Origin: Acidimicrobiia bacterium
Lineage (GTDB): Bacteria > Acidobacteriota > Vicinamibacteria > Vicinamibacterales > SCN-69-37
NCBI GenBank assembly: GCA_045862915.1
Contig: BTVE01000011.1
Span: 15,182 to 79,181 of the forward strand
Direction: 5' to 3'
DNA: 64,000 nucleotides
Part shown: positions 37,283-42,113 of the stretch, in pieces
Position numbering within the stretch: position 1 is the first letter of the stretch
Layout: each line of letters starts with the position of its first letter
Translations under genes and position numbers: made by a program
The notes under the pieces: model-generated
Database searches by the model: none
What the model was told of the DNA's origin: nothing
Seen by the model: the letters and a program-made list of their open reading frames with translations, nothing else

Positions 37283-38836
37283 ATGGTAAGGTGTACTCGG
37301 TTTTCCGTGACTGGCACCCTCGGCAACAACGCCTTCCTGAACTACTTCACCGGAGTGCGGGCCGGCGTGTACATCGGTCTGCTCGGCGATGAGGAGACCG
37401 CAACGCTTGCGGCCAATCCGTTTCTCCGGCTGATGTTTGGGTGGGACGAACACGTGGACTCTGCCGTCGTCCGACCGTTTGATGCGGATCGTTTTGTGGA
37501 CCCGCAGGCGCGTGAAGGCTTCCTGGCTCGCCTGCGCCGCGACGGTGCCGCGCAGGATCACCTGTTGCGTCTGCGCCGTGTCGACGGCACGGGATTCTGG
37601 CTGGAAGTCACCGCACGCGCGGAAGTGATCTCGAGTGAAGGTGGCGTGCTGCGCGTCGAAGCGCTGATGCGCGACGTCACCGAGCGCAAGAAGCTTGAAG
37701 ATCAGTCACGCGACGTCCTTCACGAACTCTCGCAGGCCGAAAAACTCGCGGCACTGGGCCAGACGATGAGCGGTGTCGCGCACGAGCTCAACAATCCACT
37801 CGCGACCATCCTCGCCTGCGCGGAACGCCTCGCCGGTCGGAGGCATGACGACTCGACCAGGCGCGATCTCGATGCGATTCACAACGCCGCAGAACGCGCC
37901 GCGCGCATCGTGCGTAACCTGCAGACGTTCGCGCGCAAGCGGCATACGACCCGCACGATGGTCGACGTCAACCAGGTCGTCCGCGACACACTCGCACTGC
38001 GATCCTACGAACAACGTGTCTCGAACGTCACGATCATCGAGGCGCTGGCGGCCGGTCTGCCGCCGGTCTTCGCCGACCCGCACCAGATTCAACAGGTGCT
38101 CCTCAATCTGATCATCAACGCCGAACACGCGATGATTGGCGCGCACGGCCGCGGCCTGCTGGTACTGCGGTCGTGGCACGAACCCGACCGCGACGCCGTC
38201 CTGCTCGAGGTCTGTGATGACGGCCCGGGGATCCCGGACGAGGTGCAGCAGAAGATCTTCGATCCCTTCTTCACGACAAAAGCCGTCGGCAAGGGCACGG
38301 GCCTGGGCCTCACGGTGGCGTACGCGATCGTGCAGGAACATGGGGGCCGGATCTCGGTGAGTTCCCCCGCCGGCGGTGGCGCGGCGTTTGTCCTCGAGTT
38401 GCCATCCGGAGGTTCACCGGTGCGTGCAGCCGCCCCGGCGTCGACGCTCGCGCCCGCCGCTGCCGTCCCAGTGGGGACACGCGCGCTGGTGGTCGAAGAC
38501 GAGGAGGCGCTGGGCGAAGCGGTGGCCGACGCGTTGCGCGATGCGGGGTTTGATGTGGACCGCGCGCGTGACGGCGAAGAGGCGATCGAACGCGTGCAGT
38601 CACGCGCCTACGATGTGATCGTGTGCGACCTGAAGATGCCGCGTGTGGATGGCATGGCGTTTTTTGCGCACCTGGCCGGCACGGCGCCGGCGCTGACCAG
38701 GCGCCTGGTCTTTGTCACCGGCGATGTCGCCGGGACGGAGGCCGAACAGTTCCTCGAACGCAGCGGATGTCGATGGCTCGCCAAGCCATTTCGACTGCGC
38801 GACCTCGTGCACGCGGCGCGCGAAACGATCCGTTAG
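37283..38836 (+). CDS. Hybrid sensor histidine kinase (PAS-HisKA-HATPase-REC), no HPt domain
   Basis: 517 aa. H-box is GVAHELNNPLATI. N/G boxes are LLNLIINAEHAM, DDGPGIP and GTGLGLTVAY. The receiver is LVVEDEEA...DVIVCDLKMPRVDG...KPF. Confidence 0.85.
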   Translation: MVRCTRFSVTGTLGNNAFLNYFTGVRAGVYIGLLGDEETATLAANPFLRLMFGWDEHVDSAVVRPFDADRFVDPQAREGFLARLRRDGAAQDHLLRLRRVDGTGFWLEVTARAEVISSEGGVLRVEALMRDVTERKKLEDQSRDVLHELSQAEKLAALGQTMSGVAHELNNPLATILACAERLAGRRHDDSTRRDLDAIHNAAERAARIVRNLQTFARKRHTTRTMVDVNQVVRDTLALRSYEQRVSNVTIIEALAAGLPPVFADPHQIQQVLLNLIINAEHAMIGAHGRGLLVLRSWHEPDRDAVLLEVCDDGPGIPDEVQQKIFDPFFTTKAVGKGTGLGLTVAYAIVQEHGGRISVSSPAGGGAAFVLELPSGGSPVRAAAPASTLAPAAAVPVGTRALVVEDEEALGEAVADALRDAGFDVDRARDGEEAIERVQSRAYDVIVCDLKMPRVDGMAFFAHLAGTAPALTRRLVFVTGDVAGTEAEQFLERSGCRWLAKPFRLRDLVHAARETIR

Positions 38837-38843
38837 CGGGCCT

Positions 38844-39599
38844 TCAGGCGACCGCCTGGCGGCGGAACGGCACGACGTCGGCGGTCGAGGGTTTCGGTTC
38901 CATCGCCTTGCGCAATCGGGAAACCGCGCGGGCATGCAACTGCGACACGCGTGATTCGTTCACGCCGATCTCCTTGCCGATCTCCTTCATCGTGGCGCCG
39001 CGGAAGTAGTACATCGTGATCAGCTTGCGCTCGCGTGCGGGCAGTGTGGCCAGGGCTGCGCGAATCCTGTCTTTGAGTTCGCGCTGTTCAAACTCCTGAT
39101 CCGGCGCGGGCGGCTCGCTGGGCACCAGCACGGCAGGCAACGTGGCACTGTCGATGGTGTCGAGATTCGCCAGCGGGGACGTGGACTCGATCGTGTTGAT
39201 GCGGAGAATCGTGCGTTCAAGCCTCGCCTGATCCGTACCGACACGTTTCGCCAGGTCGGCGAGCGTGGGTTCGGCGCCAAGTTCACGGCGCAAGGCTTCA
39301 CGCGCGGCTTCCAGCTCGCGGCGGACGCGGCGCACACCGCGCGGCCAGGCGTCCCGGCGCAACGCGTCGATCATGGCGCCTCTGACGCGGCGCTCGGCAA
39401 ACGTCTCGAACTTGATGCCGCGTTCGGCCTCAAAGCGATTGGCGGCGTCGATGAGCCCAATGACACCGTCCTGCACGAGGTCAGACACATCAATCGAATG
39501 GGGCATCGTCGATGCCATTCGTCGTGCGAGAGACTCGACAAAGGGCAGGGTCGCGACGACCCGATCGTGCTGATGACTGGCCAACTGCGCGCGCGCCAT
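38844..39599 (-). CDS. FliA/WhiG-family (sigma-28-type) RNA polymerase sigma factor
   Basis: 251 aa from the internal ATG (MARAQLAS). Region 2 is DLVQDGVIGLIDAANRFEAERGIKFETFAERRVRGAMIDALRRDAWPRGVRR. Region 4.2 is TMKEIGKEIGVNESRVSQLHARAV. A GGAGG lies 4 nt upstream of the ATG. Confidence 0.85.
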   Translation of the reverse strand: MARAQLASHQHDRVVATLPFVESLARRMASTMPHSIDVSDLVQDGVIGLIDAANRFEAERGIKFETFAERRVRGAMIDALRRDAWPRGVRRVRRELEAAREALRRELGAEPTLADLAKRVGTDQARLERTILRINTIESTSPLANLDTIDSATLPAVLVPSEPPAPDQEFEQRELKDRIRAALATLPARERKLITMYYFRGATMKEIGKEIGVNESRVSQLHARAVSRLRKAMEPKPSTADVVPFRRQAVA

Positions 39600-39648
39600 G
39601 AAACCTCCAGGACGCCAACAGCCAAGTGCTGCGGCACTACCTGTAAAG

Positions 39649-40353: not shown

Positions 40354-41748
40354 ATGACAACCGAAGACGCGTCCCCCCTTCACCTGCTGCTCGTCGAAGA
40401 CGAGGCGGCCTTCCGCGAGGTCATCGCGGAACGCCTCGGGGAGCACGGGTACCGGGTGACCCAGGCGGCGTCCGGCGAGGACGCGATTGAGCGGTTGAAC
40501 GCGTTTGCCTTCGACATCCTCCTGACCGATCTTCGGCTGCCGGGAATGGATGGGCGGAGGGTGCTCGACGAAGCCTTTGGCCGCTATCCCGACATCATTG
40601 CCGTGGTGATCACCGGCTTCGGCAGTGTCCGGGAGGCGGTTGAGGTCACGCGTCTGGGCGCGGAAGGGTTCATCACCAAGCCGTTCCAGTTTGAGGAACT
40701 GCTGCACGTGTTGCACACGGCGGTCGAGCGGCGTCGACTTCGCGCGGAGAACGCATACCTCCGGGAACAGCTTCGAGGACGACACCGGCTTGGCGGCATT
40801 GTCGGCCAGTCACCGGCTGTGGTGCGATTGATTGAACTTCTGGAAACCGTGGCGGCCACATCCAGCACGGTGCTGATCACTGGAGAGACGGGCACCGGCA
40901 AGGAGTTGGCCGCGCGCGCGATCCACGACGCCAGCCCGCGACGACTGCAGCGCTTTGTGGCGATCAACTGCAGCGCCATTCCGGAGACGTTGCTCGAAGC
41001 CGAGTTATTCGGTCACGTGCGTGGTGCGTTCACCGGCGCCGTGGCCAACCGCCAAGGCAGAGTGGAACAGGCCCATCGCGGCACGTTGTTCCTTGATGAG
41101 GTTGGAACGATGAGCCCGGCGCTGCAGGTGAAGTTGCTGCGCGTCCTGCAGTCGCGCGAGTTCGAACGTGTGGGTGATTCGCAGACCGTGAAGGTGGATG
41201 TGCGTGTGATTGCCGCCACCAACTCCGACCTGCAACAGATGGTCGCCGATGGCACGTTTCGCGAGGATCTCTACTACCGGCTCAACGTCATTCCGGTGCA
41301 TGTGCCGCCGTTGCGCGAGCGACGAGGCGACATTCCCCTCCTCGCCCAGCACTTCCTCGATCGGCTCAGCCAGGAGTCACCCACCCGGGGCCGCGTCACG
41401 TTGACGCAGGAGGCGCAGCAGGCGTTGATGGCGTACGCCTGGCCTGGGAACGTGCGGCAACTGGAAAACATCATGGAACGGGCGTTTGCGTTGTCGCCGG
41501 GCCGATCGCAGCTGCTGATTGACGACCTGCCGGACGACATGCGGGTGATGCCGCCGGTCGTGAGCCCGGACGCCGTGGAAATCGGCGATGATGGAGTGGA
41601 CTTTGATGCGCTGGTGACAGGCTTCGAGCGCCACCTGTTGCAGCGCGCGCTTGCACGCTCCGAGGGCAACAAGCGTCGGGCTGCCGACCTGTTGCGCATC
41701 AAGCGCACGACACTCATCGAGAAGCTGAAACGTCTGGAGAGGCACTGA
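40354..41748 (+). CDS. NtrC-family sigma54-dependent response regulator (REC-AAA+-Fis HTH)
   Basis: 464 aa. REC is LLLVEDEAAFREV...DILLTDLRLPGMDG...KPF. Walker A is GETGTGKE. It also has GAFTGA, ESELFGH-like ELFGH, and the C-terminal HTH GNKRRAADLLRIKRTTLIEKLKR. Confidence 0.9.
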   Translation: MTTEDASPLHLLLVEDEAAFREVIAERLGEHGYRVTQAASGEDAIERLNAFAFDILLTDLRLPGMDGRRVLDEAFGRYPDIIAVVITGFGSVREAVEVTRLGAEGFITKPFQFEELLHVLHTAVERRRLRAENAYLREQLRGRHRLGGIVGQSPAVVRLIELLETVAATSSTVLITGETGTGKELAARAIHDASPRRLQRFVAINCSAIPETLLEAELFGHVRGAFTGAVANRQGRVEQAHRGTLFLDEVGTMSPALQVKLLRVLQSREFERVGDSQTVKVDVRVIAATNSDLQQMVADGTFREDLYYRLNVIPVHVPPLRERRGDIPLLAQHFLDRLSQESPTRGRVTLTQEAQQALMAYAWPGNVRQLENIMERAFALSPGRSQLLIDDLPDDMRVMPPVVSPDAVEIGDDGVDFDALVTGFERHLLQRALARSEGNKRRAADLLRIKRTTLIEKLKRLERH

Positions 41749-41750
41749 TC

Positions 41751-42113
41751 ATGGCCACCCCTACCGCCTGCTGGATCATTCTGGTTGGGACGGTCCCCAC
41801 CGCGTTCCGCGCGAAGACCCGCGACGAGTTGCTGCCGACGTTCCGTCAACTGCAGCGCAGACAGCCGGATGTCATGCTGCGGTGGTTTGAACACGGCAAG
41901 GTGTGGGAATCGCCCGACGCGGCGAAGGCGGCGATCCTGCTGGCACGCACGGAGGCGCGCGAGAAACGGCGGCCCGCCGAACCGCGCGGGAAGGAGTGGC
42001 GGCCCGGCGGATCACACAGGGATCCGAATGCGCGGCCCACAGTGCCGCGCGACGTCAAACGTGCGCGGTTCAAGAGCAATCTCATCCGCCGCAAAACCAG
42101 CGGCAGAGGTTAG
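41751..42113 (+). CDS. Hypothetical small protein with a highly basic C-terminal tail, coupled to the sigma54 activator
   Basis: 120 aa, with the ATG 2 nt after the activator stop. It has an N-terminal compact region (CWIILVGTVPTAFRAKTRDELLPTFRQLQ) and an Arg/Lys-rich tail. Its end overlaps the convergent dusB stop by 4 bp. Confidence 0.5.
   Translation: MATPTACWIILVGTVPTAFRAKTRDELLPTFRQLQRRQPDVMLRWFEHGKVWESPDAAKAAILLARTEAREKRRPAEPRGKEWRPGGSHRDPNARPTVPRDVKRARFKSNLIRRKTSGRG

Follow-up and report, generated by a model that had tools for sequence, protein, structure and literature searches.

A candidate non-flagellar two-sigma regulatory circuit of the Vicinamibacterales, with a DHp-only hairpin as a possible relay step

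Introduction

Hybrid histidine kinases that lack an HPt domain are common, and the route by which they reach their targets is often obscure. The known histidine phosphotransferases are either HPt proteins or, as with ChpT and Spo0B, proteins that combine a DHp domain with a pseudo-CA (catalytic and ATP-binding) domain, and the latter are homologous to the DHp domains of histidine kinases (PMC9981736). Here, we describe a six-gene module in a 64,000-nucleotide stretch of DNA (positions 15,182 to 79,181 of contig BTVE01000011.1, assembly GCA_045862915.1; hereafter the window), which encodes a hybrid kinase without an HPt domain, a FliA/WhiG-family sigma factor (Sig), a DHp-only protein (mini), an excisionase-type helix-turn-helix (HTH) protein, an NtrC-type activator and a small basic protein. 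On the basis of conserved genes and promoters, we propose that these may form an order-wide, non-flagellar two-sigma regulatory circuit with mini as a relay step, a proposal that we rate, as a whole, at about an even chance. Its wiring, that is, a sigma-54 promoter for Sig, a sigma-28-type promoter for the HTH-mini operon and independence from flagella, we consider probable with good confidence.

The CckA-ChpT-CtrA and KinA-Spo0F-Spo0B-Spo0A phosphorelays resemble the module in that a hybrid kinase without an HPt domain, or a kinase together with a receiver, is accompanied by a separate His-bearing protein of the DHp fold. In these relays, the terminal response regulator runs a developmental or cell-cycle programme, whereas the terminal regulator of the module would be a sigma-54 activator, and mini would itself stand under the output sigma factor of the pathway. 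In addition, ChpT and Spo0B keep a C-terminal pseudo-CA domain, while mini is a bare hairpin with a core of ~65 residues and is a candidate phosphotransferase.

The combination of a two-component kinase, an NtrC-type activator, sigma-54 and a FliA-family sigma factor is known from flagellar cascades, for example those of Vibrio (FlrA/FlrBC) and Pseudomonas (FleQ/FleSR), which act upstream of fliA, and that of the Campylobacterota (FlgSR). Unlike these cascades, the module contains a second sigma paralogue that is kept in non-flagellate genomes, with the flagellar fliA elsewhere and no flagellar genes linked to it; its kinase is a hybrid, and DHp-only and Xis-like proteins are added. FliA/WhiG-family sigma factors have been repurposed for non-motility programmes in Streptomyces (WhiG) and Chlamydia (sigma-28) (PMC13595943; PMC10597470), and Streptomyces development also uses BldC, a small MerR/excisionase-like protein that binds direct repeats (PMC5859096). 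However, WhiG is controlled by the anti-sigma factor RsiG with cyclic di-GMP, not by sigma-54, and its phylum and regulon also differ from those of the module. Finally, RetS-GacS provides a case in which a DHp domain regulates another kinase instead of acting as a kinase, as mini might do, but RetS is a large hybrid kinase-like protein, whereas mini stands alone as a hairpin that bears an invariant His. In the literature on stand-alone DHp phosphotransferases and on Vicinamibacter sigma factors, no description of this system was found.

Gene content and host

The host belongs to the Vicinamibacterales (Acidobacteriota), and its named relatives are Vicinamibacterales or Acidobacteria metagenome-assembled genomes. 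The exact sequence of the window is common in wastewater and sludge metagenomes. An initial annotation of the window had described six features: a PAS-HisKA-HATPase-REC kinase without an HPt domain; a convergent FliA/WhiG-type sigma gene; a TGGCAT-N5-TTGC element and phased repeats before that gene; an open reading frame (ORF) of ~80 residues amounting to an H-box/DHp hairpin; an excisionase-type HTH gene overlapping the Shine-Dalgarno sequence of that ORF; and a divergent REC-AAA+(GAFTGA)-Fis activator with a coupled small basic protein. ORF listing and profile searches located all six where it had placed them. Of its interpretation, the co-conservation of the genes, the output from sigma-54 to Sig and the DHp homology of mini stood; the flagella of the host, its separate canonical fliA, the module's independence from flagella and the promoter of HTH-mini had been missed. 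The features of the module are listed below by position in the window.

37283..38836, plus strand: hybrid histidine kinase with PAS, HisKA, HATPase_c and REC domains (Pfam)
38844..39599, minus strand: Sig, FliA/WhiG-family sigma factor of 251 residues, convergent with the kinase gene (TIGR02479, Pfam)
39663-39649, minus strand: predicted sigma-54 -24/-12 element TGGCATccgagTTGC (TGGCAT-N5-TTGC) for Sig (pattern and conservation)
39701..39730, minus strand: A/T-rich segment resembling an IHF site, between the upstream sites and the -24/-12 element (anchored alignments; tentative assignment)
39741..39780, minus strand: direct repeats with CAC(A/G) cores in 10-11 bp phasing, candidate array for the HTH protein
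39785..39830, minus strand: palindromes GTCAA-N4-TTGAC and GTCA-N6-TGAC, centres 31 bp apart, candidate activator sites
39817..40059, minus strand: mini, DHp-only protein of 80 residues (profile homology, AlphaFold2)
40070..40285, minus strand: excisionase/MerR-like winged-HTH protein of 71 residues, first gene of the HTH-mini operon (HTH_17, TIGR01764)
40296..40324, minus strand: predicted sigma-28-type promoter CTACAG-N15-GCCGATAG (pattern and conservation)
40328..40341, minus strand: conserved GGTATYTTGACA element between the activator start and the sigma-28-type promoter, recurring across loci
40354..41748, plus strand: NtrC-type activator with REC, AAA+ (GAFTGA) and HTH_8 domains (Pfam, NCBIfam)
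41751..42113, plus strand: small basic protein of 120 residues, coupled to the activator, without a family match

Conservation of the module

Co-conservation of the gene set in relatives had been named beforehand as a refutation test, and the set proved to be syntenic across the order. The order kinase, Sig, mini, HTH, activator, basic protein is found in essentially all 130 related loci. When all window proteins were searched with tblastn, order and orientation were the same in 30 of 30 loci from the genus and family, and the synteny extended to 19 of 20 loci from other families of the order; it also holds in essentially all 80 loci taken from a public genome collection. Spacing inside the core does not change from locus to locus, whereas the Dus, UpxY and YhaM genes on its flanks drift, so more than general synteny holds the core together. 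The kinase is 60-95% identical among related loci, and the activator, which is divergent from HTH-mini in all of them, is 58-96% identical among relatives. Mini was found in 55 of 61 related genomes, and four genomes lack Sig and mini jointly. The HTH gene is missing from seven loci in about three lineages, which keep the rest of the module.

Several observations were made at or beside the module. At one locus (L166, G050:C3 ~6840-8980), a fragment of an IS256-like transposase replaces mini between the HTH gene and Sig; the sigma-54 promoter is intact despite the loss, and the locus constitutes a natural mini knock-out. Beside dusB lies a gene for a UpxY/RfaH-like NusG paralogue (43157-43660, minus strand; NF033644, 123 bits), which is often, not always, syntenic with the module and heads no obvious polysaccharide operon. 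On the other side, an ORF for a YhaM-like HD-domain exoribonuclease (36314-37561, minus strand) has its probable start at 37264, 18 bp from the kinase start at 37283 on the opposite strand, so that the promoter of each gene must sit within the coding or leader region of the other. The start codon of the kinase at 37283 is uncertain.

Sig is a paralogue of the flagellar sigma factor

Sig scores above the cut-off of the NCBIfam FliA_WhiG model (TIGR02479; 196.7 bits against 189.6) and contains Sigma70_r2, Sigma70_r4 and a weak region 3 in Pfam, with region 1.1 missing. The host genome is flagellate, with flagellin, FlhA and an FlgM-like protein all on other contigs (C75, C90). Its canonical fliA, at 224.8 bits, directly follows flhB-flhA-flhF-flhG (C90:5134-10862), and Sig is 39% identical to this FliA. 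The initial annotation had reported no flagellar or chemotaxis gene in the window; a search for flagellar-associated families returned Sig as the sole match there, while chemotaxis families were outside that search and the rest of the window is unannotated. The module contains no FlgM match, and the one FlgM-like protein of the host genome, encoded on the flagellin contig C75, scores below the cut-off.

Across the 61 relatives, scores against the FliA model form two groups. Canonical FliA proteins (220-250 bits) occur in only ~20 genomes, all with FlhA, while Sig orthologues (184-208 bits) occur in nearly all. Correspondingly, the module is present in ~55 of the 61 and FlhA in 21. Several 100%-complete genomes keep the module and its promoters with neither FlhA nor a canonical FliA; in non-flagellate relatives Sig is the sole sigma-28-family protein, and the HTH-mini promoter is kept there. 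On this distribution, we take Sig not to be a flagellar sigma factor and the module to be independent of flagella. A metatranscriptome contig from sludge, low in depth and strandless, covers 39131-39354 within Sig.

A predicted sigma-54 promoter precedes Sig

The element TGGCATccgagTTGC sits 50-65 nt before the Sig ATG at 39599. It is the one match to the sigma-54 pattern in the window against a chance expectation of 0.38, which alone is not significant. Its weight comes from conservation, because 126 of 129 loci carry TGG[CT]A-N6-TTGC in the corresponding position, with free variation in the five spacer bases. Together with the presence of rpoN in the host genome, this strongly backs the initial annotation's prediction that a sigma-28-type factor would be expressed from a sigma-54 promoter.

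Anchored alignments reveal an upstream layout common to the loci, which consists of two palindromes, often repeats, an A/T-rich segment and the -24/-12 element. The palindromes are of the GTCAA-N4-TTGAC type, spaced by about three turns of the helix. They overlap the mini gene at its 3' end and are kept in loci with and without the HTH gene. The direct repeats have CAC cores and number four or five per array in many loci, phased at 10-11 bp. A phased chain of at least three repeats was found in 31 of 97 HTH-bearing loci, in none of 105 shuffles and in none of eight loci without an HTH match (one of the eight is a truncated contig). Binding to helically phased direct repeats is known for Xis-type recombination directionality factors and for BldC (PMC7498355, PMC5859096), and for this reason the repeats are provisionally assigned to the HTH protein. 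Tentatively, the phased repeats would be candidate sites of the HTH protein and the palindromes candidate sites of the activator.

A predicted sigma-28-type promoter precedes HTH-mini

The HTH protein matches HTH_17 (30.9 bits) and the TIGR01764 excisionase family (30.2 bits), both above the cut-offs, and stays below the BldC model NF033787 (23.4 bits against a cut-off of 77). Its stop codon TAA falls within the mini Shine-Dalgarno sequence TAAGGTG. The two genes are fused at one locus (L042) and in two metagenomic proteins (P0126, P0161); as a general feature the fusion was rejected, since it is limited to one of 101 distinct loci and these two proteins.

Upstream of the operon, CTACAG-N15-GCCGATAG lies at 40324-40296 on the minus strand, its -10 ending 10 nt before the HTH ATG. 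The strict motif YTAHAG-N16-CCGATA has a single match in the window (chance expectation 0.00). Of 107 distinct loci, 82 have it upstream of mini, compared with 0 of 2140 shuffles; most of the other loci carry near variants, for example GTAAAG. At the seven loci without a tblastn match to the HTH protein, the sigma-28-type promoter is directly upstream of mini, 70-154 nt before it. This TAAA-N15-GCCGATAA-type promoter is kept before HTH-mini also in genomes where Sig is the sole family member, so the simplest reading is that Sig would transcribe HTH-mini, closing a feedback loop that leads from activator and sigma-54 to Sig and from Sig to HTH-mini. It is important to note that mini, behind such a promoter, would not only be a possible component of the cascade but also one of its outputs.

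A second element may act on the same operon. The GGTATYTTGACA element is followed 16-17 bp on by TCAAxx, and this TTGACA-N16/17-TCAAxx arrangement is conserved; it may be a sigma-70-type basal promoter of HTH-mini, independent of Sig, with GGTATYTTGACA possibly as its -35 box, or a regulator or autoregulatory site. In metatranscriptomes from independent sludge studies, two low-depth contigs (40029-40267 and 40063-40265) run across the HTH/mini junction, which agrees with co-transcription of HTH and mini and a 5' end close to the predicted promoter.

Candidate members of the Sig regulon

The initial annotation had proposed searching the genome for FliA-type promoters, and this was productive in part. 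A loose TAAA/GAAA-N-CCGAT scan of the whole host genome recovered the flagellin and flgM promoters, but its 217 matches, almost all in coding sequence, were otherwise uninformative. The promoters of flagellin and flgM, TGAAA-N14-(G/A)CCGAT(G/T)A (C75:1667-1693 and 9334-9308), differ slightly from the CTACAG/TAAAG...CCGATAG of the module.

Since the strict motif yielded essentially the module only in the host genome, plus one or two matches without a downstream ORF, it was also searched in 20 non-flagellate relatives, where it gave 32 matches against eight for the reversed control. About 15 of the 32 are the module's own promoter. In all 14 other matches inspected, a same-strand ORF starts 34-136 nt downstream, and in 10 of the 14 at 34-60 nt; for random positions, these permissive criteria give 62% and 30%, respectively. 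Different families share homologous targets, among them a small protein that starts with MIWFFER (L163, L164), lipoproteins (L136, L142), secreted proteins (L158, L161) and single-domain receivers (L140, L144). The host orthologue of the lipoprotein (C53 ~2962-3010) has CTGAAG-N16-TCGATAA 12 nt before its ATG. From this exploratory set of candidates, the Sig regulon may be a small group of mostly exported or envelope proteins.

Mini is a DHp-only hairpin

Mini has 80 residues when counted from its ATG, which follows an AAGGTG Shine-Dalgarno sequence, or 83 from a GTG at 40068; its invariant His is H19 or H22, respectively. The protein has no match in Pfam or NCBIfam, reaching neither the HisKA gathering score nor a match to Hpt, and a distant homologue scores 16 bits against Pfam HisKA (cut-off 26.9). 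By BLASTP, mini is 41% identical to the H-box of the neighbouring kinase over 34 residues, and hhalign aligns it with the kinase DHp domain at 96% probability (E 4.4e-9), placing its His opposite H167. The mini profile also matches DHp regions of full-length kinases outside the order. Among 31 diverse orthologues, F, H, L, N, L, G, E, R and A are invariant (consensus LFHRLNNQLGIILANAELLE). Across about 100 phylogenetically structured sequences, the putative interface helix hardly varies. AlphaFold2 predicts a two-helix hairpin with a mean predicted local distance difference test (pLDDT) score of 89.7, whose best PDB match in Foldseek is the GacS DHp domain (root-mean-square deviation 1.6 Å over 58 columns), with an E-value that is not significant; the mini profile searched against PDB sequences gave nothing significant. 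Taken together, the profile alignment, the invariant His and the predicted fold identify mini as a true homologue of DHp domains. It retains this His and the Asn at H+4, and has no ATP-binding (HATPase_c) domain.

In metagenomes, the mini family comprises at least 8000 clusters at 90% identity and ~260 at 50% identity (E up to 1e-10). Its members are nearly all 65-100 residues long, annotated as hypothetical and free of Pfam domains; in four of them (P0221, P0237, P0264, P0268), the mini domain is preceded by an N-terminal extension, DLSRW(I/L)GPLSPAF. Distant homologues of 80 residues with an MH[RK]LRN H-box were found at L131:7986-8231(-), L132:7992-8234(-) and L133:7851-8207(+). Their contexts are mini-fliA-flgM beside genes for a methyl-accepting chemotaxis protein, cheW and cheR; flgE-mini-fliL-fliN; and mini upstream of fliNOPQR. 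These homologues may represent an uncharacterised, flagellar-associated family of DHp-only proteins. The presence of mini beside fliA in a distant family implies that the link between mini and FliA is older than the module of the Vicinamibacterales, and a duplicated pair of flagellar regulators may have given rise to the module.

The hybrid kinase, the activator and the basic protein

The kinase is a cytoplasmic protein of 517 residues, in which Pfam recognizes PAS_9 (weakly), HisKA (158-220, with H167), HATPase_c (265-375) and Response_reg (402-512, with D449 and K501). No HPt domain was found by Pfam in the kinase, which ends five residues past the receiver. The receivers of kinase and activator both retain the catalytic Asp, Thr and Lys.

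Whether an HPt protein elsewhere in the genome could serve the kinase was considered from the distribution of the Hpt model (PF01627). It has no match anywhere in 14 of the 61 relatives, and at least 10 near-complete genomes among these 14 carry the module, so the module kinase cannot generally rely on a canonical HPt. In the host genome, Hpt matches are on contigs C21, C26 and C64. The only stand-alone HPt (120 residues) overlaps the 3' end of the gene for a 974-residue hybrid kinase (C21:11652-14923, minus strand); the two make up a conventional phosphorelay pair that has nothing to do with the module. For the module kinase there are two possibilities: mini acts as the shuttle, or the receiver of the kinase takes no part in a relay as an intermediate.

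The activator consists of REC (D59), AAA+ with GAFTGA at residue 224, and a Fis-type HTH_8 domain (Sigma54_activat, E 2.7e-73, Pfam). The ORF of the basic protein starts 2 nt past the activator stop and is coupled to it in translation. Its conserved N-terminal domain carries an invariant WRPGGxHxDP motif, and its orthologues (L052-L130) continue into a highly variable, repetitive R/P/G/D tail of up to ~500 residues with repeats such as DRPFRPKG or GERKPW, for a total length of ~105 to ~565 residues. AlphaFold2 models the protein at pLDDT 83, with a confident N-terminal domain; searches of Pfam and Foldseek returned no match.

A proposed circuit

In the circuit that we propose, the hybrid kinase would autophosphorylate on H167 and pass the phosphoryl group to its own receiver at D449. 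Mini, as a homodimeric four-helix bundle, would accept it on the invariant His and hand it reversibly to D59 of the activator. The phosphorylated activator would then bind the paired palindromes ~130-170 bp upstream and, with DNA bending, turn on sigma-54 RNA polymerase at the TGGCAT-N5-TTGC promoter of Sig, where the Xis/BldC-like HTH protein probably binds the phased repeats as an architectural co-factor. Sig, with sigma-28-like specificity, would transcribe HTH-mini from CTACAG-N15-GCCGATAG, closing the feedback loop, and would also transcribe the small set of mostly exported or envelope proteins. Of this scheme, we infer every phosphotransfer step, the assignment of proteins to sites and the sign of the feedback. 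A shuttle role for mini, from the kinase receiver to the activator, is the best single reading of its function, at slightly under even probability.

Several points weigh against a relay through mini. Many hybrid kinases without an HPt domain use their receiver only as a sink or regulator. Mini is without the acidic H+1 residue and the Pro at H+5 of HisKA domains and, having no ATP-binding domain either, cannot be a kinase. It is also without the pseudo-CA domain of Spo0B and ChpT, which are the sole known DHp-type phosphotransferases (PMC9981736). In another acidobacterial family, its distant homologues belong to flagellar operons and have neither a hybrid kinase nor an activator next to them. 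The link between repeats and HTH protein is weak, as about half of the HTH-bearing loci are without a chain under the motif definition used, and the RNA evidence consists of low-depth contigs that lack strand information. Finally, control of mini by Sig is as compatible with a phosphatase or decoy in negative feedback as with a relay component.

This last point leads to the alternative that survives best, which keeps the same wiring and which we consider somewhat unlikely. Mini would be a DHp-only phosphatase or decoy that, in negative feedback, removes phosphate from the activator receiver or sequesters it, or would form a heterodimer with the kinase DHp domain as in RetS-GacS, while the kinase DHp domain phosphorylates the activator directly and the kinase receiver serves as a phosphate sink or regulator. 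Such a role would suit a protein expressed from a promoter of the Sig-dependent type and hence downstream of activation. In HisKA domains the Asn at H+4 is the phosphatase residue and the acidic residue at H+1 the kinase residue, and mini retains only the former. Mini and the kinase DHp domain are homologous, and the top structural match, although its E-value is not significant, is the GacS DHp domain from the inhibitory complex with RetS. On the other hand, a pure decoy or heterodimer inhibitor would not need a His that is strictly invariant, even in distant homologues; as read from the alignment, mini differs from the kinase DHp domain at most of the helix-1 positions that usually set partner specificity; and the conserved TTGACA-N16/17-TCAAxx arrangement suggests some basal expression independent of Sig.

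Less credible, and in our view improbable, is that mini and the HTH protein stand outside phosphotransfer, with mini as a helical-hairpin partner of Sig or RNA polymerase (an anti-sigma factor, adaptor or chaperone whose evolution was tied to sigma genes of the FliA type) and kinase and activator as an ordinary two-component pair. Mini is always immediately upstream of Sig, and the mini-like genes of the distant family, found by fliA-flgM or in flagellar operons, have no kinase or activator next to them. However, the profile homology of mini is specifically to the DHp H-box, with its His aligned to the phospho-acceptor, and the distant family already has a genuine FlgM anti-sigma factor beside fliA.

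A flagellar hierarchy in which Sig is the flagellar FliA under sigma-54, as in Vibrio or Pseudomonas, is very improbable and was rejected: Sig does pass the FliA_WhiG model, the host is flagellate and mini homologues occur in flagellar clusters elsewhere, but a higher-scoring fliA is on C90, the module is in ~55 of 61 relatives against ~20 for FlhA and canonical FliA, and complete non-flagellate genomes keep it. That the excisionase-family gene marks a mobile-element or prophage remnant in an accidental grouping, as its HTH_17 and TIGR01764 matches might suggest, is hardly conceivable and is refuted by synteny, the same housekeeping genes flanking the module across the order; G+C content is uniform, the HTH gene shares an operon and its conserved upstream promoter with mini, and no integrase was seen.

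Significance for two-component signalling and the Vicinamibacterales

The strongest form of the relay reading, which we put forward as a tentative possibility, is that mini represents a third, minimal class of histidine phosphotransferase, a DHp-only homodimer with a core of ~65 residues that has neither the HPt fold nor a pseudo-CA domain and would link a hybrid kinase to a sigma-54 activator. If this is true, transcription of the mini gene by the pathway's output sigma factor would make the circuit a self-reinforcing, possibly bistable switch over a non-flagellar regulon of the sigma-28 type that comprises envelope and exported proteins.

The module would add a FliA-family sigma factor with a non-flagellar role beyond WhiG of Streptomyces and sigma-28 of Chlamydia; to our knowledge, no other non-flagellar FliA-family sigma factor is under sigma-54 control. 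With two promoters and six genes, it is a compact circuit in an abundant but little studied order, as the Vicinamibacterales are among the most abundant bacterial orders of soil and wastewater. If mini does act as a shuttle, the bare DHp hairpin would be a new and easily overlooked component of two-component signalling.

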